From: Pseudescherichia sp.
Lineage (GTDB): Bacteria > Pseudomonadota > Gammaproteobacteria > Enterobacterales > Enterobacteriaceae
Direction: 5' to 3'
Assembly: GCF_031998825.1 (NCBI RefSeq)
Contig: NZ_DAMACX010000001.1
Location: 46,665-110,664, forward strand
DNA length: 64,000 nucleotides
Shown here: positions 1,778 to 28,003 of the stretch, piece by piece
Numbering within the stretch: position 1 is the first letter of the stretch
Layout of the letters: every line of letters starts with the position of its first letter
Translations under genes and position numbers: made by a program
Notes under the pieces: model-generated
Seen by the model: the letters and a program-made list of their open reading frames with translations, nothing else
Databases searched by the model: none
Told to the model about the DNA's origin: nothing

Positions 1778-2725
1778 ATGAAAACAGAGACCCCATCCGT
1801 AAGAATTGTTGCTATTGCGGCCGACGACGCCGGGCAACGTATCGATAACTTTTTGCGCACCCAGCTCAAAGGCGTGCCGAAAAGTATGATCTACCGCATC
1901 CTGCGTAAAGGCGAAGTGCGGGTTAACAAGAAGCGCGTGAAGCCCGAGTATAAGCTGGAAGGCGGGGATGAGGTGCGTATCCCGCCGGTACGTGTCGCCG
2001 AGCGCGAAGAGGAGGCGGTGTCACCACATCTGAATAAGGTGGCCGCGCTGTCGGATGTTATCCTTTATGAAGACGATCATATTCTGGTGCTGAACAAGCC
2101 CTCCGGTACCGCGGTGCACGGCGGCAGCGGGCTGAGCTTCGGCGTCATTGAAGGCCTGCGCGCCCTGCGCCCGGAGGCGCGCTTCCTGGAGCTGGTACAC
2201 CGTCTGGACCGGGATACCTCCGGCGTGCTGCTGGTGGCCAAGAAGCGCTCGGCGCTGCGCTCCCTGCATGAGCAGCTGCGCGATAAAGGCATGCAGAAGG
2301 ACTATCTGGCGCTGGTGCGCGGCCAGTGGCAGTCGCACGTCAAAACGGTTCAGGCTCCGCTGCTGAAGAATATTCTGCAGAGCGGGGAGCGAATTGTGCG
2401 GGTTAATAGCGAAGGTAAACCCTCAGAGACGCGCTTTAAGGTTGAAGAGCGCTATGCGTTCGCGACGCTGGTGCGCTGTAGCCCGATTACCGGCCGTACC
2501 CACCAGATCCGCGTTCATACCCAGCACGCCGGGCATCCTATCGCCTTTGACGATCGCTACGGCGACCGCGAGTTTGATAAGCAGCTGGCAGGCACCGGGT
2601 TAAACCGTCTCTTCCTGCACGCGGCGGCGTTGAAGTTTACCCATCCGGGTACTGGCGAAACCCTGCGCATTGAAGCACCGCTGGATGAGCAGCTGAAGCG
2701 CTGCCTGAAGGTGTTGCGCGGGTAA
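1778..2725 (+). CDS. rluC: 23S rRNA pseudouridine(955/2504/2580) synthase RluC
   Basis: ORF 1736..2725. From the internal ATG at 1778 it reads MKTETPSVRIVAI...GQRIDNFLRTQLKGVPKSMIYRILRKGEVRVNKKR, near-identical to E. coli RluC, which starts MKTETPS. Divergent from rne as in E. coli. Confidence 0.95.
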   Translation: MKTETPSVRIVAIAADDAGQRIDNFLRTQLKGVPKSMIYRILRKGEVRVNKKRVKPEYKLEGGDEVRIPPVRVAEREEEAVSPHLNKVAALSDVILYEDDHILVLNKPSGTAVHGGSGLSFGVIEGLRALRPEARFLELVHRLDRDTSGVLLVAKKRSALRSLHEQLRDKGMQKDYLALVRGQWQSHVKTVQAPLLKNILQSGERIVRVNSEGKPSETRFKVEERYAFATLVRCSPITGRTHQIRVHTQHAGHPIAFDDRYGDREFDKQLAGTGLNRLFLHAAALKFTHPGTGETLRIEAPLDEQLKRCLKVLRG

Positions 2726-2728
2726 CGT

Positions 2729-2799
2729 AACGCCCGGCGGCGCAAGCTTGCCGGGCCTACGATCCTGTAGGCCGGGTCAGGCGAAGCCGCCACCCGGCG
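2729..2799. repeat. REP/BIME-like extragenic palindromic units
   Basis: gcccggcggcgcaagcttgccgggcctac ... tgtaggccgggtcaggcgaagccgccacccggc between convergent rluC and yceF. It resembles enterobacterial REP units (GCCGGATAAGGCG...CCGGC type). Confidence 0.45.
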
Positions 2800-2804
2800 T
2801 TGGT

Positions 2805-3389
2805 TTAGGCTAAAAGAGGATTGCAGTGCTCCCGGCGCAGCATCTGGCAGAGCGCGATCAGCGGCAGCCCCACCAGCGTGTTTGGATCCCGACCTTCAAG
2901 GCGGTCAAACAGTGCAATCCCCAACCCCTCGCTTTTAAAGCTACCGGCGCAGTTCAGCGGCCGCTCTTTACGCAGATAGTCAGTAATCTCCTGCTCGCTC
3001 AGGTGGCGAAAGTGAACGTCAAACGGTTCGCACTCGGTTTGCAGGTGGCCGGTGGCGGAGTTATAGAGCGCCAGCCCGGTATAGAAGGTGATGATATTAC
3101 CCCGCGCCTTCATTAACTGCTGAAAGGCTTTCTCCTCCGTTAACGGCTTGCCGGTTATTTCACCGTCCAGCACGCACACCTGATCGGATCCAATAATCAG
3201 ATGGTTAGGGTAGCGATCCGCCAGCGACTGGGCCTTGGCCTGCGCCAGGCGCAGCACCAGGTGGCGGGGGGCTTCCCCAGGGTTGGGAGTCTCATCCACG
3301 CCCGGTGCGGCACACTCGAAGGCCAGGCCGAGCTTTTCCAGCAGCGCGCGGCGGTATGGTGACGTGGACGCAAGAATAATATTCGACAT
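2805..3389 (-). CDS. yceF: Maf-like nucleotide pyrophosphatase YceF
   Basis: 194 aa, [35 protein letters not shown]..., Maf family. Position next to yceD/rpmF as in E. coli. Confidence 0.9.
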
Positions 3390-14491: not shown

Positions 14492-15925
14492 ATGTTTAAG
14501 AATGCATTTGCTAACCTGCAAAAGGTCGGTAAATCACTGATGCTGCCCGTTTCCGTACTGCCCATCGCAGGGATCCTGCTTGGCGTCGGTTCGGCAAACT
14601 TTACCTGGCTTCCAGAAGTGGTTTCCCATGTTATGGCAGAAGCGGGCGGTTCCGTTTTTGCTAACATGCCTCTGATTTTCGCTATCGGTGTTGCGCTTGG
14701 CTTCACCAATAACGATGGCGTGTCTGCGCTGGCGGCAGTGGTTGCCTATGGCATTATGGTGAAAACCATGGCCGTGGTTGCGCCGCTGGTGCTGCATCTG
14801 CCTGCGGAAGAGATCGCGGCGAAACACCTGGCGGATACCGGTGTTCTCGGCGGGATCATCGCGGGTGCGATTGCTGCCTACATGTTTAACCGCTTCTACC
14901 GTATCAAGCTCCCTGAGTATCTGGGCTTCTTCGCCGGTAAGCGTTTCGTGCCGATCATCTCTGGTCTGGCTGCGATCTTCATGGGCGTGATCCTCTCCTT
15001 CATTTGGCCACCGATCGGTACGGCTATCCAGACCTTCTCCCAGTGGGCTGCTTACCAGAACCCGGTTGTGGCGTTTGGTATCTACGGCTTCATTGAGCGC
15101 TGCCTGGTACCGTTTGGTCTGCACCACATCTGGAACGTTCCTTTCCAGATGCAGATTGGTGAATACACCAACGCGGCAGGCCAGGTCTTCCACGGCGATA
15201 TCCCGCGCTATATGGCAGGCGACCCGACCGCAGGTAAACTCTCCGGTGGCTTCCTGTTCAAAATGTACGGCCTGCCGGCTGCTGCGATTGCCATCTGGCA
15301 CTCTGCAAAACCGGAAAACCGTGCCAAAGTGGGCGGGATCATGATCTCCGCCGCGCTGACCTCGTTCCTGACCGGTATCACCGAGCCGATCGAGTTCTCC
15401 TTCATGTTCGTTGCGCCGATCCTCTACGCAATCCATGCGGTGCTGGCAGGTCTGGCCTTCCCGATCTGTATCCTGCTGGGTATGCGTGACGGGACCTCCT
15501 TCTCGCACGGTCTGATCGACTTCATCGTGCTGAGCGGTAACGGCAGCAAACTGTGGCTGTTCCCGATTGTCGGCCTGTGCTACGCGGCAATCTACTACAC
15601 CGTGTTCCGCGTGCTGATCAAAGCGCTTGATCTGAAAACGCCGGGCCGTGAAGACGCAACCGAAGATTCTAAAGCTGGCGCAACCAGCGAGATGGCTCCG
15701 GCGCTGGTCTCCGCCTTCGGTGGTAAAGAGAACATCACTAACCTCGACGCCTGTATTACGCGTCTGCGCGTGAGCGTGGCCGACGTGGCGAAGGTTGACC
15801 AGGCTGGCCTGAAGAAACTGGGTGCAGCGGGTGTGGTGGTTGCAGGTTCGGGCGTTCAGGCAATTTTCGGTACTAAATCCGATAACCTGAAAACCGAAAT
15901 GGATGAGTACATCCGCAACAGCTAA
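14492..15925 (+). CDS. ptsG: PTS glucose-specific EIICB component
   Basis: 477 aa, [33 protein letters not shown]... C-terminal EIIB has [13 protein letters not shown]. Confidence 0.97.
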
Positions 15926-17419: not shown

Positions 17420-18496
17420 CTACTCATTCCCAGGGACACCAGGACCAATCAATGTAGCCCTTACCTGAGGAAGACTCTGCGGATAATTTTGTTGAATAAA
17501 CTCAATCATTTTTTCCCGCACGTGACAGCGTAAATCGAAGGCCATAGGTGAATTTTGCGCCGTCATTAACAATCTGATTGTCATGCTCTTTTCAGTCGTA
17601 TCGGTAACCTGGAGGACCTGCGTTTGTTGATCCCAGAGTTTTGTTTCACTGAGCACCTTTTCAAAGTGTTTTCGAAGAGGCTCTAAGGGCATCGAATAAT
17701 CCAGATAAAGAAAAACAGAGCCTAAAATTTGTGCATTGTTACGCGTCCAGTTTTGAAATGGATTTTCTGTAAAGTAGGTAATCGGTAAGACCAGTCGGCG
17801 CAGATCCCAGAGACGCACTACAACATACGTCAGGTTTATCTCTTCAATCCAACCCCACTCTTTTTCAACCACCACAGCATCATCGATTTTTATGGGTTGC
17901 GTAAACGCTATCTGAATTCCGGCAAACAAATTGACAAGCGATTTCTGTAGGGCAAAACCAATTATTATTCCGGCAACCCCTGCACCGGCCAGGATGGTCG
18001 TGCCAAATTTTCTAACGCCAGGGAAGCTAAGTAGAATCAGTGAAAGACAGAACGTCACAAGCACAACAATAGCGACTTTCTTAACATACATTATCTGAGT
18101 GCGAATTTTGCGGGCACGAAGATTATTCGATATATTAATATCATAACGTATGAAAAGCATATCCTGTGCAACATTAATCAATCGAATCAGCACAGAGCAA
18201 AATGACAATATAATAAATATATTGATTGCAGTTATAATAAATAGAAAGGATTCAGGTTGAATGTGGACATAATTAACCCCTATGCGTATTAACAGCAGAG
18301 GAATGAAAAGAAACATTGATCCACGAAGGTGTTTCTCCAGTGATTTGAATAGCTTTCTGTCGCGACTCTGCCAGTAGCGGATGAATCGTAGAAGTATAAA
18401 TCTCGCGAGAAAACCTACCGCGAGCGAGAGAGTCACGACCAATACCGCAGGCACCCATGTCGGCGCGACAGATAACTCACCAAATAAAAAAGACAT
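17420..18496 (-). CDS. Mechanosensitive ion channel family protein (MscS-like)
   Basis: 358 aa with several N-terminal TM segments, then ...GVAGIIIGFALQKSLVNLFAGIQIAFTQPIKIDDAVVVEKEWGWIEEINLTYVVVRLWDLRRLVLP..., the MscS pore helix/beta-domain signature. Visibly AT-rich. Confidence 0.8.
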   Translation of the reverse strand: MSFLFGELSVAPTWVPAVLVVTLSLAVGFLARFILLRFIRYWQSRDRKLFKSLEKHLRGSMFLFIPLLLIRIGVNYVHIQPESFLFIITAINIFIILSFCSVLIRLINVAQDMLFIRYDINISNNLRARKIRTQIMYVKKVAIVVLVTFCLSLILLSFPGVRKFGTTILAGAGVAGIIIGFALQKSLVNLFAGIQIAFTQPIKIDDAVVVEKEWGWIEEINLTYVVVRLWDLRRLVLPITYFTENPFQNWTRNNAQILGSVFLYLDYSMPLEPLRKHFEKVLSETKLWDQQTQVLQVTDTTEKSMTIRLLMTAQNSPMAFDLRCHVREKMIEFIQQNYPQSLPQVRATLIGPGVPGNE

Positions 18497-18916: not shown

Positions 18917-20430
18917 TGTTAACGCCAGGCTGTAATATCCCCTTTAAACCATCCTAAAATGTCCCCGTCGATTTTTCGGGGATATTTTTCATGCGCAAAG
19001 AGACAGTTACAATGAGCTATAAGGAACTCGACAGGCTTCAGATTATTCAGGGCTCTGTGAACAGACATATTACTCAGGAGCAGGCAGCATTGCGTATGGG
19101 TATATCTGTTCGTCAGGTTAAAAGACTGGTGAACCGGTACCGAAATGAAGGACCTGCCGGTCTGGTTTCTCGCCGTCGCGGGAAGCGACCCAATAATGCA
19201 TTTACTCCTGAATTCAAAGCGGCTGTTATATCTCTCCTGAAAGAACGTTACTCAGATTTCGGTCCCACTCTTGCCGGTGAGAAACTGCGCGAGGTTCACG
19301 GCTTATCTCTATCAACTGAAACACTCAGAAAGTGGATGGTGGAGGAAGGGTTGTGGCGGGAACGTCGGCGTAAAATTGCCCGAATCTACCAGCGCCGCAT
19401 GCGTCGTCCTTCGTACGGCGAACTGATCCAGATTGATGGGTCTCCTCATGACTGGTTTGAGGCACGAGGTCCGCGATGTACCCTAATTGTCTTTATTGAT
19501 GATGCCACCAGTGCCCTGATGGCGCTGCGCTTCGCCCCGCGGAAACGACCCGTGCTTATATGGAGACGCTCCGGGGATACCTCACAGATCATGGGGTACC
19601 CCTGGCTCTCTATTCGGATCGGCACAGTATATTTCGCGTAAATAACCCGGAGCGCGAAGGGGAGCTGACCCAGTTTACCCGGGCGATTAAGATCCTGCGT
19701 ATAGAGCCCATTCATGCCAACACGCCTCAGGCAAAAGGTCGCGTTGAGCGGGCAAACCAGACGCTCCAGGACCGGCTGGTAAAAGAACTGCGCCTTCAGG
19801 GGATCAGCGATATCGAAACGGCAAACGCATGGTTGCCGGAGTTTATTGAAGCGTATAATAACCGCTTTGCCACCGCACCCCGTGACTCTGCTAATGCCCA
19901 TCTCGATGTACACCATTCGGAAGAAGAGCTGAACCATATCTTCAGCTATCAGGCGAAACGAGTTCTCTCAAAAAACCTCACCTTTCAGTACAAAACCAGT
20001 GCGTTCCAGATACGCAGTGAAGGGCGCGGTTACCGGCTCCGTAATTCAGTTGTTACCGTGTGTGAGAGTTTTGAAGGAGAGATTGCTGTTCTGTATGAGG
20101 GCAGGGCACTGGGCTGGGAAAAATATGTCGACGGACCTGAACCCATACCTCTTGACGACGAAAAAAGCGTCCACGAGCGGGTGGACAGGGCCCGGGTAAA
20201 TCTGCGCTCAAAATACTATGTCAAACCTAAAGCAGATCATCCCTGGCATACCCGCAGAACGCAAAGTCATGAACAGGCAAAGCCGCCACGATTACCTGCA
20301 AGGAAATCGGATATGGATAAACCGGACTGAAACTAAACGCACAGGGTTGAATGCATACAAGGTCAAAGCGTAGATAACTGTGCTGTGTTTCTGACGTTTT
20401 TGTTTGGGTGGTAGCCACTATTTTAACGGT
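18917..20430 (+). mobile_element. Degraded ISNCY (IS1202-group)-like insertion sequence; ends not defined
   Basis: Contains the frameshifted transposase below. I could not identify terminal inverted repeats, so the boundaries are approximate guesses. Confidence 0.35.
18991..20330 (+). pseudogene. ISNCY-family (IS1202-group) transposase, split by a 1-nt frameshift
   Basis: ORF 18991..19641 (HTH ...QEQAALRMGISVRQVKRLVNRY...IQIDGSPHDWFE...LIVFIDDATSALMALRFAP) continues in another frame as ...AETTRAYMETLRGYLTDHGVPLALYSDRHSIF...QAKGRVERANQTLQDRL (DDE integrase core; ORF 19560..20330). The two frames join at ccccGcggaaacg (about 19539), consistent with loss of one base. Confidence 0.8.
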
Positions 20431-20496
20431 AGCGCGTCAGAAGAGCACTCAGCTGGTTATAGCAGTAGGTTTCTCGCAAGGCAGGGTAGAAGCGTA

Positions 20497-21798
20497 TCAC
20501 TGAACTGAGATGTGATGAATTCGGAATGCATCGTTAGGTGATGTTGTGAAGACAATCACCTGACGATATTTCAGACTACCGAGTCTTAACTGCTGTTCCA
20601 TCATATCGTAGTAGTGGTACATCTTTTTACCTGTATCGAGCTCAACAATATACAAGCCAAGTATAGATTGACCAATAACTGGGGTAAATGCAATTTTCAG
20701 CACCTGAAATTTTGCTGCAAAATTGAGTAGATAAGGTGATGGGAAGTTCGGACGAATCACCCCATCACTGAGGGATAAGTGACCTTTGAGGACGACATCT
20801 CCAACGACATAATTCCCTACATCTACCTCATGGAATAGAATGCGGGCACGCGAAGAGGAGCTTAAGTGCCTGACCGTTAAAATTTGCTCGGCTCTCCTCT
20901 CTGGAGTTAGTAGCTGACTCATAGCCAAATCAACGCTTTCCTTTAAAATTCCCAACTTATATGTCGCTAATGTGTGTTGATCATAACTGAACTTATTTAT
21001 GCTAGGTGCCTTAGGGTAGAGAGTTTGCCGATCAAAGCCCCGTTGATTGTATTGTAAAGTATCGAAGTGCTCACCAATTGACCCAATATAACGAGCATTC
21101 ACCGTCATAGTATTCAACCGGGCAACTCCCAAATAAAGTGATGCTAAATTCTTAGCTCGATCTTGCGAAGTGGGGAGTGGACCAAAGCCTAGTGAACTAT
21201 AGAACCTCCAGATGGCTTTTTTGTCGCGAAATCGGTAGTCATTTCGTTTAACAATAGATAGATAAGGCTCTAATACCATTTTACGGTCGAGCCAGTTATT
21301 TCTTTTTAGAGCAAAACCCCAATTGAAACCCGCATGTATAAGCCTCTGTTCGTTATTTTTTTGGTATTCAAGTGAAGTGTGGTACTCAGGACCACAGCAG
21401 GTCACCATGCCGACTTGATTGTTACTCAGATAAGTTCGAACCAGAGCATTGAGAAGTTGAAAATAATGAGGCTGGACGACTAAATCATCCTCAAAGAAAA
21501 AGGCGTATTCTGCCTGGAGTTCTTCAAATACAAATCGCTCAGCACGGTCATAATTTAGAGCGATACCAATATTTTCCCGATTAGAGTGTACCACTCCCAA
21601 AGGAAAATACGATTGAAAGAGTTGGACGCACTGATCAGTTAATGCAATTTCATCTTGCTCTAGTCTCGGCCCGTCCTGAAACAAATGATATGTAAATTGG
21701 TGATGTTCAACAAGATCTTGCTGACTTAGGCTATCTAATACTGTTTGTAGATATTGTGGGCGATTATAAGACAAAATCACAACAGGCACTTCATTCAT
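20497..21798 (-). CDS. GT-A fold glycosyltransferase (EDD motif) with unassigned C-terminal domain
   Basis: ORF 20497..21801 with ATG at 21798. N-terminus VPVVILSYNRPQYLQTVLDSL...AFFFEDDLVVQPHYFQLL resembles GT2/GT13 (GnT-I-like EDD) nucleotide-sugar transferases. The last ~200 aa have no motif I recognise. Start overlaps the upstream stop (ATGAATGA). Confidence 0.7.
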   Translation of the reverse strand: MNEVPVVILSYNRPQYLQTVLDSLSQQDLVEHHQFTYHLFQDGPRLEQDEIALTDQCVQLFQSYFPLGVVHSNRENIGIALNYDRAERFVFEELQAEYAFFFEDDLVVQPHYFQLLNALVRTYLSNNQVGMVTCCGPEYHTSLEYQKNNEQRLIHAGFNWGFALKRNNWLDRKMVLEPYLSIVKRNDYRFRDKKAIWRFYSSLGFGPLPTSQDRAKNLASLYLGVARLNTMTVNARYIGSIGEHFDTLQYNQRGFDRQTLYPKAPSINKFSYDQHTLATYKLGILKESVDLAMSQLLTPERRAEQILTVRHLSSSSRARILFHEVDVGNYVVGDVVLKGHLSLSDGVIRPNFPSPYLLNFAAKFQVLKIAFTPVIGQSILGLYIVELDTGKKMYHYYDMMEQQLRLGSLKYRQVIVFTTSPNDAFRIHHISVQ

Positions 21799-22393
21799 CA
21801 ATCAGCACCTTGTGTAGGACTCTGGTTTGATTGAGTGTATTGTGGAACGCCAAGCGACCATGCAGAGAAGAGTGATTATCCACTATTAATCCATCACCAG
21901 CCTCAAGCTTGATTTTGAGTACATTTTTCTTGAGTTCAGCTACAAATGCTAACCAAGCATCTAGAAAATATTGAGAACGCACCTTCTCAATACTGCGGTA
22001 ATTGTGAGGGACACGAATAATATCGTTAGAGTAAATTTGATAGGTACATCGATTACCAACTTTTTCATGGGCTACGCTTTCCTTATTTAAAACCTCGAGG
22101 ATATGTGGTGACACACATCTACTCACATTGCCAATCAGTAAAGACTCTCCTCCAACAGGGGCCGGACTCTCACAAAATAATAAGAGATAGCGTGGAGGTA
22201 CAGGGCTCCAGAAAATATCAGTATGAGGTGGTACCAGGATGTTTGAATGCTCTACTGTCCCTGCTCCCTGAAACTTTATAGTTTTGGTAGAAAAAATCTT
22301 ATGGTGAGGTAAGTACGACCTAAGTGTCGAAATATTGCCCACATCTTTCAAATGCACCCAGCCCTCTACGGCTAACCGTTCCGATATATTCAC
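21791..22393 (-). CDS. TauD/TfdA-like Fe(II)/2-oxoglutarate dioxygenase (short form)
   Basis: 200 aa, GTG start in a GTGA overlap with the upstream stop. Has ...NILVPPHTDIFWSPVPPRYLLLFC...GGESLL...IVDNHSSLHGRLAF (HxD...H facial triad plus Arg pattern of the TauD family). Confidence 0.7.
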   Translation of the reverse strand: MNISERLAVEGWVHLKDVGNISTLRSYLPHHKIFSTKTIKFQGAGTVEHSNILVPPHTDIFWSPVPPRYLLLFCESPAPVGGESLLIGNVSRCVSPHILEVLNKESVAHEKVGNRCTYQIYSNDIIRVPHNYRSIEKVRSQYFLDAWLAFVAELKKNVLKIKLEAGDGLIVDNHSSLHGRLAFHNTLNQTRVLHKVLIDE

Positions 22394-23691
22394 TTAGAAG
22401 CCTTAGTTGTATGAATGCGATATAAATATCTTGGGCTATCTTCAGGAATATTATCTCGCCCATGCAACATTCGTTTGTTATCAACGAATAGCGCCTCGCC
22501 AGGCTTTAGTCTTAATATAACCTGTTCAGCATGAGAAATTGACGATTCAAGTGCCTGAAGTGCAACTATTTGTGTTTCACTATAATTATCAAGTAACAAC
22601 CAACGTGTATAGTAGATCTCATCTGACGTTGCACCTGGTCTTAAAATAGGATAAATATCTGTTTTAAAACGCTTATAAAGTGGAAAGCCAATGTGCGTTT
22701 TACGGAGTATCTCGCGGGTACTTTCGGGAAGGGATTCAATTAGTGGCTTACAATCAATCAGAACACTGCTACCTACATGCGGATCTTGTCTAATGCAATA
22801 CCAAGCTACGGTGTTAACCAGTGGTGAATCTGTATGAGGGGACAAGGATTCTGGCTTGTTAAACTTCAGTTTCGACTCATTATTTAATTTAATATCAGAT
22901 ATGGTTTTTACACTACCAAGATGCTCGTTAATATCTACATATTGCTCAAAGCTTAACTCCTGCTTAATGTGGCAATAACCATGTTGTTGCAACTCGCCTT
23001 CAACATAAGTAGCGAGTTGATCCACACTCTTCATCTTTATAGATTGTGGTTTCGGCTCATTTACAGCTAGCATTTTTATTATCTCGATAACTTGCTCTTT
23101 TGATTTTCCTTCACTGAACACCAAGCGAGCAGGTAGCGAATACAATAAAATCGTTTCTGTAATTTCAAATCGCTTAGAGTAGGAGTTAAAAAAAGCTTGG
23201 CTATTCTCTAACAGAGCTTTACTTGTAACTTGATTCCGTTCGTAAGATGGCGTTGGGACATGGTGAATATAACGTCCATAGTTATCATAGCACCAGCTTT
23301 GATACTCATAACTAAAAGTTAAAAACTGGTGCCAGAATTCATCGATGATGCCCGACATCATAGCACCATGGCCAGTTTCAACCCAACGTTCAAATTCTTC
23401 AAATAGGTAGTATGGATTATCCTCTATAAGTTTCAGAATCGTAGGGTGAGTCGTCTTTCGAAGGACTTTTAACGTACGTTCACACACCTCCCGAATCCGA
23501 TAAGACTTAACGTAGTGTTCAGGTTTATCAGCATACTTTAGAAAGAAATTGTCCGCTTTAATGAATGGATGTATTTCTTTGGTGAGATCGCTGTATTGTT
23601 CAGGCAGATAACCAGGCAGGTAATCCGATAGTTTTTTTGGAAGATTTCCCTTTGATTGATAGACTGCGAAGCTTAATTGTTTCAAAATCAT
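22390..23691 (-). CDS. Fusion protein: N-terminal GRDP/DUF1399-like domain + C-terminal TauD-like Fe(II)/2OG dioxygenase
   Basis: ORF track gives 22390..23805 from a TTG. I prefer ATG 23691 (MILKQLSFAVYQ...) because AGGGA lies 6 nt upstream and the TTG extension overlaps the peptide ORF. C-terminus has ...SLSPHTDSPLVNTVAWYCI...FVDNKRMLHGRDNI. N-domain has IDEFWHQFLTFSYEYQSWCYDNYGRYIHHVP. Confidence 0.65.
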   Translation of the reverse strand: MILKQLSFAVYQSKGNLPKKLSDYLPGYLPEQYSDLTKEIHPFIKADNFFLKYADKPEHYVKSYRIREVCERTLKVLRKTTHPTILKLIEDNPYYLFEEFERWVETGHGAMMSGIIDEFWHQFLTFSYEYQSWCYDNYGRYIHHVPTPSYERNQVTSKALLENSQAFFNSYSKRFEITETILLYSLPARLVFSEGKSKEQVIEIIKMLAVNEPKPQSIKMKSVDQLATYVEGELQQHGYCHIKQELSFEQYVDINEHLGSVKTISDIKLNNESKLKFNKPESLSPHTDSPLVNTVAWYCIRQDPHVGSSVLIDCKPLIESLPESTREILRKTHIGFPLYKRFKTDIYPILRPGATSDEIYYTRWLLLDNYSETQIVALQALESSISHAEQVILRLKPGEALFVDNKRMLHGRDNIPEDSPRYLYRIHTTKASK

Positions 23692-23734
23692 GGCATATCC
23701 CTGATTATTGCCTGGAGTAGGTCGCTTGAGTGAG

Positions 23735-23875
23735 TTATCGATCCCAGCCGCAATCATTGCAGTTGCTGTGACACTGATTGCATTCACTGCTCTCCGTATT
23801 TTCAATCATTGCACTAGCAACTGAATCCAAGTCAATGTTATGAGCTTGCTTGATTTCTTCAACTGTGTTTTCCAT
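23735..23875 (-). CDS. Unannotated 46-aa Cys-rich peptide (candidate RiPP precursor)
   Basis: Reverse complement reads ATGGAAAACACAGTTGAAGAAATCAAG...TGCGGCTGGGATCGATAA = MENTVEEIKQAHNIDLDSVASAMIENTESSECNQCHSNCNDCGWDR. AAGG lies 9 nt upstream of the ATG. Same strand as, and 43 nt upstream of, the dioxygenase gene. Below the ORF-track size cut-off. Confidence 0.5.
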   Translation of the reverse strand: MENTVEEIKQAHNIDLDSVASAMIENTESSECNQCHSNCNDCGWDR

Positions 23876-24491
23876 CTTTTAGTACCTTAAATTTTATTCA
23901 TATAGTGACGGAAAGAATCTATACAGCATTCTTTCACTTAGTACCTAAGAGAATCTTCGATTAAGCCTACATTCCCGTATAGACATAAAGCGCTCCCTCA
24001 GATTCAAAGACGGGCTGATTTTAAATATATACCCTTTTGTTAGATTATAATATTTTGTTCTCAGATTCAACCAGCAAACTAATGGCGAATTTACGGTTTT
24101 CTGGAAGACCGGTCTTGAACGAGATGGTGAGCTGAAAGTCGATTTGGGGAGCTGTACGATACGCTTCCTGCACAACATAGGCGGTAATGGACATCAGTTC
24201 GGGTCAGTAAAAGTGCCATCAAAAAAGCGCATGCAATGATGAACATCTTTGGTAATCACGGAAAGCAAGAAGTCTTAATACTTGCATATCTCTAACAGCA
24301 AACGTATGCACTTGATGACTACGCAGGTCATCGCCTTTAATGAAATATCTTTGCTCCAAAATTCCGTTCTAACCGCGAGCAGCATATCTGGCATGGGCCA
24401 TCGGGGAACAGGTCAGCGGAAACGGCTGAAATTATCCCGCATTACGCTGGCACCAGCTTAGGGCTGGCGACCAGCTTGAAGGGAGCTTCAG

Positions 24492-25481
24492 CTATTGGTT
24501 TCTGAAGAAAGCGGTCCTTGAAAGGGTCATTTGCGTCTGGCAGTCGACCATTTTCTTGACTTCAGCATCTGTTCCCTGCATTGAAACTTTGCCGCACATG
24601 GCATCCTTAGTTTTGATCCACTGGCGCTGAGAAGGTAGTAACTCTTTTTTCTTCGCCGGCGTTAACGTGCTCCAGGTGGTATTCAAATCAGAGTCGGCAT
24701 TCGCAAATGCCATTCGGGACTGATCAAGGCTGCCAGCTTTTTGTTGCTGAGGCTGCTGGTAGGATTGTTGTGGAATGGTTTGCTGAACCTGCTGCTCTGC
24801 CTTTTCTTGCGCCTGAAGCTGTGTCTGCCTCTCAATTTGCTGATCACGCTCATACTTCGCCTGTTGCTGCGCCCTGAGTTGTGCCTGTTGTTCCGCTTCA
24901 ATTTGAATCTGCTGGGCATCCTTAGCCTGCTGGATTTTCTGCTGCTCAACGATCGGGTTGATGATGGAAAGCGATGTCAGTGCAGCGGCACCCACTGATA
25001 TCGGATTATCAGAAGAGGCTTTTACAAAAACGATTTTTTGATCGTCGGTCGCCTGCGCGGTGTAGGAGATGCGTTTTGAAAAGGCGTTTGCGTTGTTATC
25101 CAATGACAGGCTTTCCATTTGCTTGTCGAGATTACGGTTAAAGTTCTTTCTGTAAGCATCAGAAAGCTGGGTGTAGTCGTTGGCAGGTAAGGTCATCGTC
25201 ACGGTCCCTTCACAGGTTTTCATTGTGCTGCCCGTGTCACTTGAGGTTGTGGAAATTTCAGAGATGACCAGTTTGATCTTGTCTAAAGCGCTTCGTTTGG
25301 TCTGATTAGTGACGTCAGGGTATTTGTCGACCTGTTCAGAGAGTCCTTCATAAGCAGATTTTTTTAATAAATCCATGAGAGCTGACTGGGTCATTTCAGA
25401 GGAACAACCGATCACGTCTTTTTTGTTATCACAGCCTGTAATGGCAACGGCGAGTAAGAGTGCTGAGTATTTTAATCTCAT
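24492..25481 (-). CDS. Lipoprotein with Gln-rich coiled-coil linker and C-terminal DUF1311 (LprI-like) domain
   Basis: MRLKYSALLLAVAITGC-D lipobox with Asp at +2. Central QQ(A/E/K)-rich low-complexity stretch. C-terminus ...LPSQRQWIKTKDAMCGKVSMQG...VDCQTQMTLSRTAFF resembles DUF1311. Confidence 0.7.
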   Translation of the reverse strand: MRLKYSALLLAVAITGCDNKKDVIGCSSEMTQSALMDLLKKSAYEGLSEQVDKYPDVTNQTKRSALDKIKLVISEISTTSSDTGSTMKTCEGTVTMTLPANDYTQLSDAYRKNFNRNLDKQMESLSLDNNANAFSKRISYTAQATDDQKIVFVKASSDNPISVGAAALTSLSIINPIVEQQKIQQAKDAQQIQIEAEQQAQLRAQQQAKYERDQQIERQTQLQAQEKAEQQVQQTIPQQSYQQPQQQKAGSLDQSRMAFANADSDLNTTWSTLTPAKKKELLPSQRQWIKTKDAMCGKVSMQGTDAEVKKMVDCQTQMTLSRTAFFRNQ

Positions 25482-27630: not shown

Positions 27631-27706
27631 CTCATCAACTTTGAAGCCGCCTACGTGAACTGCACCCAAACAGTTGGATACCCAACGAAATAAGGTGCAG
27701 TTTTTT

Positions 27707-27841
27707 ATGAGCAAATATTCTCTCAGCTTTAAGCTTGAGGTTGTGCAGCACTATCTTTCCGGACCGGAAGGGCAGAAAGCGACTGCAAAACGTTTTGGTA
27801 TCGATCACAGTGCCGTTCGTAAGTGGTTTCCCTGCACCTGA
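27707..27841 (+). pseudogene. IS3-family transposase OrfA N-terminal fragment
   Basis: MSKYSLSFKLEVVQHYLSGPEGQKATAKRFGIDHSAVRKW then FPCT*. This is the HTH module typical of IS3-family orfA, truncated after about 40 codons. No orfB follows. Confidence 0.65.
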
Positions 27842-27973
27842 CGGTGGGAGAGGAAAGCATGGTTGTAAGAGAAGGCTGTTCGGCAATAGCCCGGACTGAT
27901 GAGCCGCACAGCTATGCCTGCGCGGGAGATGACGCACTGATTTTTACCATGACGGTGAGCGAAAGGGCGCGAT

Positions 27974-28003
27974 AAGAAAAGGAATGGCGGACTATACCGC
28001 CAT
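27974..28003 (-). terminator. Probable intrinsic terminator of sugE
   Basis: Minus strand: atggcgg-tatagt-ccgccat followed by tccttttctt. Confidence 0.5.

Follow-up and report, generated by a model that had tools for sequence, protein, structure and literature searches.

The 64,000-nucleotide window of Pseudescherichia sp. analysed here carries, on its minus strand, a small low-GC cassette of 3.6 kb composed of four genes in the order 46-amino-acid (aa) peptide, fusion oxygenase, short oxygenase and GT-A glycosyltransferase. The two oxygenase genes occupy positions 21791-23691, which consist of exactly two overlapping minus-strand open reading frames (ORFs). With a probability of about 0.55, they encode oxidative tailoring enzymes of a mobile cassette of the type that produces peptides synthesized ribosomally and modified post-translationally (RiPPs), with a chemistry inferred from the comparisons described below. 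The cassette is embedded in an island (~17.4-28 kb) with a GC content of 39-47%; the surrounding enterobacterial-type chromosome, which includes ptsG at 14492-15925, has a GC content of 55-62%.

The fusion oxygenase gene (22390-23691, minus strand) encodes 433 aa from an ATG (MILKQL), a start that fits the N-termini of its homologues. A longer, TTG-initiated reading was rejected, since it overlaps the upstream peptide gene and is unsupported by those N-termini. Residues ~225-433 (22390..23019) constitute a BBOX/TmpA-like TauD module of the Fe(II)/2-oxoglutarate (2OG) type, assigned by its Pfam TauD, BBOX1 and Foldseek matches. The second gene (21791-22393, minus strand) encodes a short stand-alone TauD-type oxygenase of 200 aa with a GTG start, which overlaps the stop codon of the fusion gene by 4 bp and suggests translational coupling. 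Both proteins score above the gathering score of Pfam TauD (PF02668; 27 bits), the fusion protein with 39.8 bits (E 6.3e-10) and the short protein with 57.6 bits (E 2.5e-15). An earlier note on this DNA, made from the sequence alone, had assigned both modules to the TauD family on the basis of their motifs, and this assignment holds: all the motifs that it quoted are present (GYCHIK / GWVHLK, LSPHTDSPL / VPPHTDIFW and FVDNKRMLHGR / IVDNHSSLHGR) and the HxD…H triads are intact. In the fusion enzyme the triad consists of H286/D288 (22828-22836) and H410 (22462-22464), with R421 (22429-22431), 11 residues past the distal His, as the putative 2OG-binding Arg; in the short enzyme it consists of H57/D59 (22217-22225) and H178 (21860-21862), followed by R191. 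H286, D288, H410 and R421 are invariant in 12 fusion homologues, down to 42% identity, and R421 keeps its position throughout; H57, D59, H178 and the motifs GGE[ST] and DNxxxxHGR of the short enzyme are invariant in 7 loci.

The closest named relatives of these modules are small-molecule hydroxylases. Using a profile of the 12 homologues, the best match of the fusion protein among PDB sequences is BBOX1 (E 1.6e-7), and H286/D288/H410 fall in register with H202/D204/H347 of BBOX1, the triad residues of that enzyme. The AlphaFold2 (AF2) model of the fusion enzyme, with a predicted local distance difference test (pLDDT) score of 75, retrieves TauD, AtsK, clavaminate synthase (CAS), BBOX, AsnO and CarC as top Foldseek matches (E~1e-10), so that a double-stranded beta-helix (DSBH) fold is confirmed at the level of the prediction. 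A weak profile similarity of the oxygenases to AsnO and VioC is also found. NCBIfam gives partial, far sub-threshold matches only (20-33 bits vs equivalog cut-offs of 268-415 bits), the best being TmpA, gamma-butyrobetaine dioxygenase, GntD, VioC and clavaminate synthase; for the short enzyme gamma-butyrobetaine dioxygenase ranks first, with a partial match at residues 51-196. PADLOC and PHROGs scans covering the three enzymes and the neighbouring genes produced zero matches, so that no catalogued defence or phage family corresponds to the cassette.

The earlier note also considered the two modules as duplicates and proposed aligning them pairwise and as profiles. BLASTP between the two window proteins recovers only a 20-aa stretch around DNxxxLHGR (E 3e-4), and hhalign, comparing the two families as profiles, aligns them colinearly along 187 columns (probability 93%, E 4.9e-8, 20% identity), with the HTD and DNxxxxHGR motifs in register. 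By these alignments the two modules are homologous and unusually compact members of TauD, each of ~200 aa against the 267 positions of the Pfam model, in agreement with the shortness relative to classical TauD that the note had pointed out. The homology and colinearity are thus borne out; the duplication itself is not demonstrable at 20% identity and with a distant clade that lacks the second oxygenase.

The N-terminal part of the fusion enzyme is more unusual. The extra domain, described previously as ~230 aa long and as resembling DUF1399, is indeed present, spans residues 1-215 (23047..23691) with a conserved core at residues ~61-185 (23137-23511), and contains the string IDEFWHQFLTFSYEYQSWCYDNYGRYIHHVP quoted at the time. 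It was assigned to PF27765 ('UCP032817-like') by the precomputed Pfam tables, in which the window protein and all its full-length homologues carry this family, as well as by profile search and AF2 modelling. Against a profile made solely from free-standing family members the window protein scores 88.8 bits. A search of 1.84 billion representatives with the N-domain profile returned 1207 proteins at E<=1e-3, mostly of 130-250 aa, with the common motif VDEvWHqFiLFTrEYxxFCxxxFGRyIHHxP. In an alignment of 45 very diverse sequences of the family, D117, W120, Y130 and C134 are invariant, and H121, H143, H144 and P146 are nearly so.

The resemblance to DUF1399 (PF07173), the domain of the glycine-rich-domain proteins (GRDPs), stands at the superfamily level and fails as direct membership, since the N-domain alone matched no family even at E<=10, PF07173 included, in a Pfam copy that predates PF27765. 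Several proteins bridge the two families. P0150 and P0154 contain tandem copies, of which one matches the N-domain profile and the other resembles PF07173; the second copy of P0150 passes the PF07173 cut-off (24.9 vs 22.7 bits), that of P0154 lies just under it (22.1 bits), and D, W, Y and C remain invariant when the N-domain is aligned with these PF07173-like copies. P0175, P0179 and P0186 match PF07173 (E 2e-8 to 4e-6, model positions ~95-143 of 143; 35.3 bits for P0175 and 33.3 for P0186) and also the N-domain profile, P0175 most strongly (8e-32). These three proteins are annotated with both PF07173 and PF27765 in the precomputed tables, and P0186 is named 'glycine-rich domain-containing protein-like' by NCBI.

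Structure prediction and a Foldseek search of the N-domain, likewise suggested in the earlier note, point in the same direction. The AF2 model built on the 45-sequence alignment (pLDDT 83; predicted template modelling score, pTM, 0.79) has an all-alpha fold, the sole exceptions being two short strands within the N-terminal extension, where confidence is low; it is helical from residue 66, and 10-residue blocks within residues 61-210 average pLDDT 83-97. Foldseek gives it just three meaningful neighbours, all of them giant-virus proteins (probability 0.99-1.00, root-mean-square deviation 3.6-5.2 Å, 114-127 columns), one of which, with probability 1.00, is named 'Glycine-rich domain-containing protein-like'. 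Against the PDB no neighbour was found by Foldseek (best E 1.4, TM<0.2) and no relative by sequence. According to these bridging sequences, the double Pfam annotation and the giant-virus match, the N-domain belongs to PF27765, a sister family of DUF1399 to which it is related at the superfamily level. Two other identities were ruled out. A RiPP recognition element (RRE; PqqD-like winged helix with a three-stranded sheet) is incompatible with the all-alpha model and with the lack of PDB and Pfam RRE/PqqD matches, and an HD domain of the SmaX/PhnZ/TmpB kind finds neither an HD match in Pfam nor a PDB neighbour.

Directly upstream of the fusion gene lies the gene of the precursor-like 46-aa peptide (23735..23875, minus strand), MENTVEEIKQAHNIDLDSVASAMIENTESSECNQCHSNCNDCGWDR, recognized by its ORF, its conserved position and its codon signature. 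Its leader codons occupy 23786-23875 and its core codons 23738-23785. The homologues of the cassette comprise 14 clusters and 6 metagenome loci, and an ORF of 45-48 aa precedes the fusion enzyme in every locus with enough flanking sequence. The N-terminal ~30 residues are variable and the C-terminal 16 nearly invariant, which corresponds to a leader/core organization; 13 columns of the core, E-C-N-Q-C-H-x-N-C-N-D-C-G-[W/Y]-[D/G]-R, show no variation among 10 loci. Over the final 17 codons, the window and L008 differ by 10 synonymous codons and a single non-synonymous one, and other pairs are similar. This codon pattern indicates that the peptide gene is translated and that its last 16 residues are under strong purifying selection; by alignment, the core is more conserved than the enzymes that would process it. 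In the distant two-gene cassettes L019-L021 the leaders are Lys-rich and otherwise unlike those of the window's clade, and the core is unchanged (ECNQCH[G/A/D]NCNDCGW[D/G]R). Common to the leaders of both clades is a helix-like motif, [IVL]-x-x-[IV]-x-x-x-[HY]-[NGS]-[IVL]-[DK]-[LMF]. The idea that the leader derives from the last helix of the PF27765 domain was dropped, since the N-domain of the enzyme still has that helix.

The core (23738-23785) includes CNQCH, literally a CxxCH haem-c attachment motif, within a Cx2Cx3Cx2C pattern, and it gives weak Pfam matches to cytochrome-type families (PSCyt3 0.023, Haem_bd 0.17). Haem attachment is unlikely because the peptide has no signal peptide; metal binding by the four Cys and the His of the core is plausible from their spacing. 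In the divergent clade, an AT-rich hairpin followed by a U-tract separates the peptide and fusion-enzyme genes (L005:1355-1425, L008:612-685, L011:298-375; -13 to -19 kcal/mol, z -1.7 to -3.7), with a stem sequence that varies among the loci and a pairing that is kept. This element, absent from the window's clade, looks like a partial terminator and would raise the peptide:enzyme ratio.

The last gene of the cassette (20497..21798, minus strand) overlaps the short oxygenase gene by 8 bp and encodes a GT-A-type glycosyltransferase of 433 aa from the ATG at 21798; it is found in all loci of the window's clade. It was identified by Pfam Glycos_transf_2 (1.2e-5, 25.8 bits vs a cut-off of 23.3) and by two motifs invariant in 6 loci, the N-terminal PVVILSYNRPxYL and the DxD-type FFFEDD (21484-21492); the C-terminal ~130 aa are poorly conserved. 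Matches to MGAT2 (6.9e-4) and GNT-I (0.059) remain below the Pfam thresholds, and a search of PDB sequences gave no match with the single sequence and no significant one with a profile (best E 0.31).

The same four-gene order is found in Marinobacterium weihaiense, Kluyvera sichuanensis, Vibrio parahaemolyticus and several metagenome contigs. By blastn, the cassette unit of the window (20483-24101) is 80-87% identical to the Kluyvera, Marinobacterium and Vibrio loci. The homology extends from the stop codon of the glycosyltransferase (~20483-20499) to ~80-225 bp upstream of the peptide gene, with upstream limits at 24101 (Kluyvera), 24070 (Marinobacterium) and 23953 (Vibrio). The flanks are unrelated between genomes and often contain integrases, insertion sequences (IS) or toxin-antitoxin genes, and the chromosomal sites differ; on this comparative evidence the cassette is self-contained and horizontally mobile. 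The two-gene cassettes L019-L021 contain fusion enzymes 36-37% identical to that of the window and lack both the short oxygenase and the glycosyltransferase; they are followed in one locus by a YefM/YoeB pair and in another by a helicase plus a two-component ADP-ribosyltransferase. Since the other two enzymes are missing from these cassettes, the peptide and the fusion enzyme are the conserved core of the system, to which, judging from the distribution of the genes, the short oxygenase and the glycosyltransferase are clade-specific additions.

The partnership of the N-domain with Cys-rich segments is also observed in other arrangements. In L022:444-962 and L023:892-1404, a gene located directly upstream of a fusion-type oxygenase gene encodes a protein of 170-172 aa that joins a PF27765/DUF1399-type domain to a Cys/Asn-rich tail, GGCINCNTACGTHGCRNNCN; the protein reads LDEYWHMHILDTKKYMEDC…GKYLHH and scores 71 bits against the profile of free-standing members only. 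The fusion oxygenase next to it has the HH of its own N-domain changed to NR, and the upstream domain-plus-tail protein keeps an intact copy. This arrangement resembles the window's system in a 'cis' form. A free-standing N-domain gene in L024 is preceded by one for a 75-aa peptide that ends in …WIPNCGINSNCHTNSSTCCNNHYK. According to these gene layouts, the domain may be joined to the Cys/Asn-rich segment in cis or accompany it in trans, and in at least two cases the oxygenase is present as well.

A census of free-standing PF27765 proteins, covering the best 141 of the 1207 matches (P0031-P0171), shows that this pairing is not restricted to the cassettes. In 93 representatives the HH motif is followed by 60 residues or more; of these, 42 (about 45%) carry at least 3 Cys within their final 35 residues, and 34 carry at least 4. 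The tails of this set are ~3.5-fold enriched over the domain in both Cys (6.7% vs 1.9%) and Gly (12.4% vs 3.5%), and the commonest Cys spacings are CxxxC, CxxxxC and CxxC. Free-standing tails are rich in Cys, Gly, Ser and Asp, for example CNASCNASCGADCNASCNAS or CGSGCGDGCGNDCASCGSDGSCGD, and recall the Cxxx-repeat targets of radical S-adenosylmethionine (SAM) enzymes and the Gly-rich segment of plant GRDPs. As for their surroundings, a small SAM methyltransferase gene is found downstream in two unrelated loci and an M16 (PqqL-like) peptidase gene in a third, in a small sample whose other loci show no such partner (L014:8335-8865, L015:6651-7241, L027:3549-4817). In a gammaproteobacterial metagenome-assembled genome, a free-standing PF27765 gene is divergent from one for a 170-aa protein made of CxxCxGxG DnaJ-type zinc-finger repeats (L014:6983-7495).

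Our best reading of these data is that the DUF1399-like domain engages a Cys-rich substrate in a RiPP-type pathway. The N-domain would dock the peptide on the fusion enzyme by contacting the conserved leader helix, the Cys-rich core or both, possibly via a metal shared at its D/H/C/HH motif. A peptide-recognition role of this domain, put forward in the earlier note, gains indirect support from its repeated pairing with Cys-rich tails, although the D/H/C/HH motif would suit a metal or catalytic site just as well. The BBOX-like C-domain would then hydroxylate an unactivated side-chain carbon of the core. The most likely target is an Asn, Asp or His adjacent to a Cys, at its beta-carbon, since each of the three core types seen contains 'N-C-N' and 'C-H'. 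A second site would be oxidised by the short oxygenase in the window's clade, and the glycosyltransferase with its EDD motif would afterwards attach a sugar, either to a newly made hydroxyl or to a Ser or Cys. The fusion enzyme would represent the class-defining step.

The oxygenase modules share with the branch of BBOX1, TmpA and trimethyllysine hydroxylase the HxD…H triad, the distal DN-x3/4-LHGR motif and the predicted DSBH fold, and in the window's proteins an Arg lies ~11-13 residues past the distal His; they differ from BBOX1 (~380 aa) in their ~200-aa size, in the absence of its N-terminal Zn domain, and in the substrate, which is a betaine for BBOX1 and would be a peptide here. Asn and Asp are beta-hydroxylated by AsnO and SyrP, which are of the TauD/CAS type, and CinX hydroxylates an Asp in a RiPP. 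The systems of AsnO and SyrP (nonribosomal peptide synthetases), CinX (Asp15 of cinnamycin) and SmaO (Asp of a graspetide; PMC12186529) thus resemble the cassette in having a 2OG oxygenase that is encoded beside a precursor or acts on Asn/Asp. In these pathways, however, the hydroxylase is secondary to a class-defining enzyme such as a lanthipeptide synthetase or an ATP-grasp enzyme, whereas in the present system no enzyme other than the oxygenase fusion is conserved alongside the peptide. The role proposed for the N-domain, that of tethering a precursor to its modifying enzyme, is that of an RRE, the usual leader-binding module, with an unrelated fold. With respect to glycosylation, the combination of a 2OG hydroxylase and a GT-A enzyme with a DxD-type (EDD) motif is reminiscent of the hydroxylation-then-glycosylation of collagen by LH3/PLOD3 and of Skp1 by PhyA-Gnt1; no solved glycosyltransferase, be it a SunS-type S/O-glycosyltransferase of glycocins or another, matches the sequence of the enzyme significantly, and its weak similarity is of the GnT-I/MGAT2 type.

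Several observations weigh against the peptide pathway as we describe it. The modification site and its chemistry are ones that we infer. No leader protease, exporter or immunity gene is conserved beside the cassette, the homology unit being the four genes only, which leaves a secreted antimicrobial unsupported. In the loci examined, free-standing PF27765 genes have no consistent enzyme neighbour. R191 of the short enzyme, 13 residues past the distal His, is Arg in the window's clade and Lys in the divergent clade. Finally, the N-domain is not an RRE and lacks a solved structural relative, its D/W/H/Y/C/HH/P motif, which hardly varies, has the look of a metal or active site rather than of a peptide-binding groove, and the loss of HH in the L022/L023 enzyme, together with its retention in the substrate protein, argues that this motif does more than dock a leader.

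These last points lead to the main rival of a docking role, namely that the N-domain is a second metal-dependent domain, catalytic or chaperone-like, acting on the Cys-rich core, and that the fusion is a two-step enzyme. It might, for example, insert a metal, form cross-links or process the hydroxylated residue further. The invariance of D117, W120, Y130 and C134 in 45 diverse sequences, almost matched by H121, H143, H144 and P146, would fit such a site, and in L022/L023 the motif is apparently needed once per system. The closest named relatives of the C-domain include TmpA as well as BBOX, and pairs of a 2OG hydroxylase and an HD-domain enzyme (TmpA-TmpB, PhnY-PhnZ, SmaO-SmaX) offer an analogy for two consecutive steps. 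SmaO-SmaX fusions do occur in RiPP clusters (PMC12186529); the Asp-to-aminomalonate cascade of SmaO/SmaX, from the same study, is useful as a functional analogy only. However, Pfam gives no HD match for the N-domain, Foldseek retrieves neither PhnZ, TmpB, MIOX nor any other PDB fold, and most free-standing family members have no adjacent hydroxylase. We consider a catalytic N-domain to be a serious but rather unlikely explanation.

It is improbable that the short oxygenase is only a structural or regulatory partner, as a subunit of a hetero-oligomer with the fusion enzyme, and that a single oxidation takes place. The 4-bp overlap of start and stop codons, the minimal size of the module, the Lys that replaces the expected 2OG-binding Arg in the divergent clade, and the absence of the gene from the distant clade with the same core would all suit such a role. 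Nevertheless, all 7 loci compared retain HxD, GGE[ST], DNxxxxHGR and the distal His without change, and the short enzyme scores higher than the fusion enzyme against Pfam TauD (57.6 bits). Even less probable is that the enzymes act on a betaine, an amino acid or a sugar outside any peptide pathway, the small ORF being a metal-binding mini-protein with no relation to them, or else a regulatory leader: the nearest named relatives (BBOX, TmpA, AsnO, VioC and CAS) all use small molecules, the cassette has no protease or exporter, and the CxxCH/Cx2Cx3Cx2C core resembles a metal-binding pattern, but the small ORF is the sole constant partner of the fusion enzyme, even in two-gene cassettes devoid of any other enzyme, is replaced elsewhere by a Cys-rich tail on a protein with the same domain as the enzyme and has a core more conserved than the enzymes, and no transporter or other small-molecule pathway gene is linked to the cassette.

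Beyond the cassette, there is a broader and more tentative proposal, which we regard as possible rather than probable: the DUF1399/PF27765 superfamily, present in bacteria, giant viruses, fungi and plant GRDPs, could be a 'handling' domain for low-complexity tails rich in Cys and Gly. Both families carry the signature D-x2-W-H-x-[FH]-x-L-x3-4-Y-x3-C-x3-4-G-x2-[IL]-H-H, and in plant GRDPs, as in PF27765, the domain is accompanied by a low-complexity Gly/Cys-rich segment. The N-domain of the window differs from GRDP-like/DUF1399 proteins in an extra N-terminal extension of ~60 residues and in being fused to an enzyme instead of a Gly/Cys-rich tail. The free-standing bacterial proteins with Cys-rich tails may then be self-contained precursors, each comprising domain and core, and the cassette of the window would be split by comparison, its domain having been transferred to the oxygenase. 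If true, this would mean a new RiPP class with a class-defining TauD-type oxygenase, and the product, with its invariant Cx2Cx3Cx2C, might be an intracellular metallopeptide or cofactor and not an antibiotic.

With regard to the surroundings of the cassette, the conserved region upstream of the peptide gene (23876..24101, minus strand), delimited by blastn homology to other loci, is a putative promoter or regulatory region. No strong sigma-70 consensus is present on its minus strand, and a promoter/terminator scan across the operon gave a result not above shuffled expectation. On the other side, a transposase of IS/integrase type on the plus strand (18991..20330), recognized from transposase-like sequence and split into the ORFs 18991-19641 and 19560-20330, adjoins the edge of the unit; the cassette homology ends just short of it, at the glycosyltransferase stop codon, and the transposase is outside the functional cassette. 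Together with an IS3-type orfA fragment at ~27674-27975, on the far side of the low-GC island, the split transposase indicates that the island is a patchwork of mobile DNA. Upstream of the cassette, 24492-25481 encodes a lipoprotein that contains a coiled segment rich in Gln and, at its C-terminus, an LprI (lysozyme inhibitor) domain (Pfam 4.6e-7); this gene is probably unrelated to the cassette because it lies outside the 3.6-kb homology unit. A downstream MscS-like gene (17420-18496) was rejected as an island member, as it is unrelated to the Kluyvera gene at the equivalent position, and it is excluded too by the end of the DNA homology at the glycosyltransferase stop codon.

In other genomes the genes next to the cassette are of the kind commonly seen in islands of conflict or defence, among them Cas_NE0113, radical SAM, PHP and phosphoribosyltransferase (PRTase) genes in Vibrio parahaemolyticus (L006:12572-19302), the SLFN/UvrD-type helicase and two-component ADP-ribosyltransferase of L021:1728-4796, and the YefM/YoeB toxin-antitoxin pair of L019:2937-3390. 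The P0012-type copy (L001:1-92, 1976-3333; also L002 and L003) appears degenerate. Three independent assemblies (L001, L002 and L003) break 91 bp upstream of its fusion-enzyme gene, so that the peptide gene was not recovered, and its glycosyltransferase gene is shortened to ~130 aa and located beside a DDE transposase.

The literature found on DUF1399 consists only of phenotype studies of plant GRDPs, with nothing on UCP032817/PF27765, and that on RiPPs with TauD enzymes or with a hydroxylase and a glycosyltransferase is limited to the SmaO/SmaX study; the cassette is undescribed in both. A RiPP-type pathway with a TauD-type class-defining enzyme and a new, structurally unassigned substrate-handling domain, previously undescribed, is the best reading of the locus. 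The RiPP-type family added in this way would have a TauD/BBOX-like oxygenase as its one enzyme conserved throughout, with a substrate-handling domain that is neither an RRE nor any solved fold. With four genes in 3.6 kb, the system is small enough for direct testing in E. coli. The core is conserved beyond the enzymes and moves among Enterobacteriaceae, Vibrio and Marinobacterium without an exporter or immunity gene, which suggests that the product is tightly constrained and possibly intracellular or metal-dependent. As for the GRDP-like family, for which stress and development phenotypes are described in plants and, to our knowledge, no molecular function, it gains its first testable biochemical context, its physical or genetic pairing with Cys/Gly-rich peptide segments that are probably hydroxylated.

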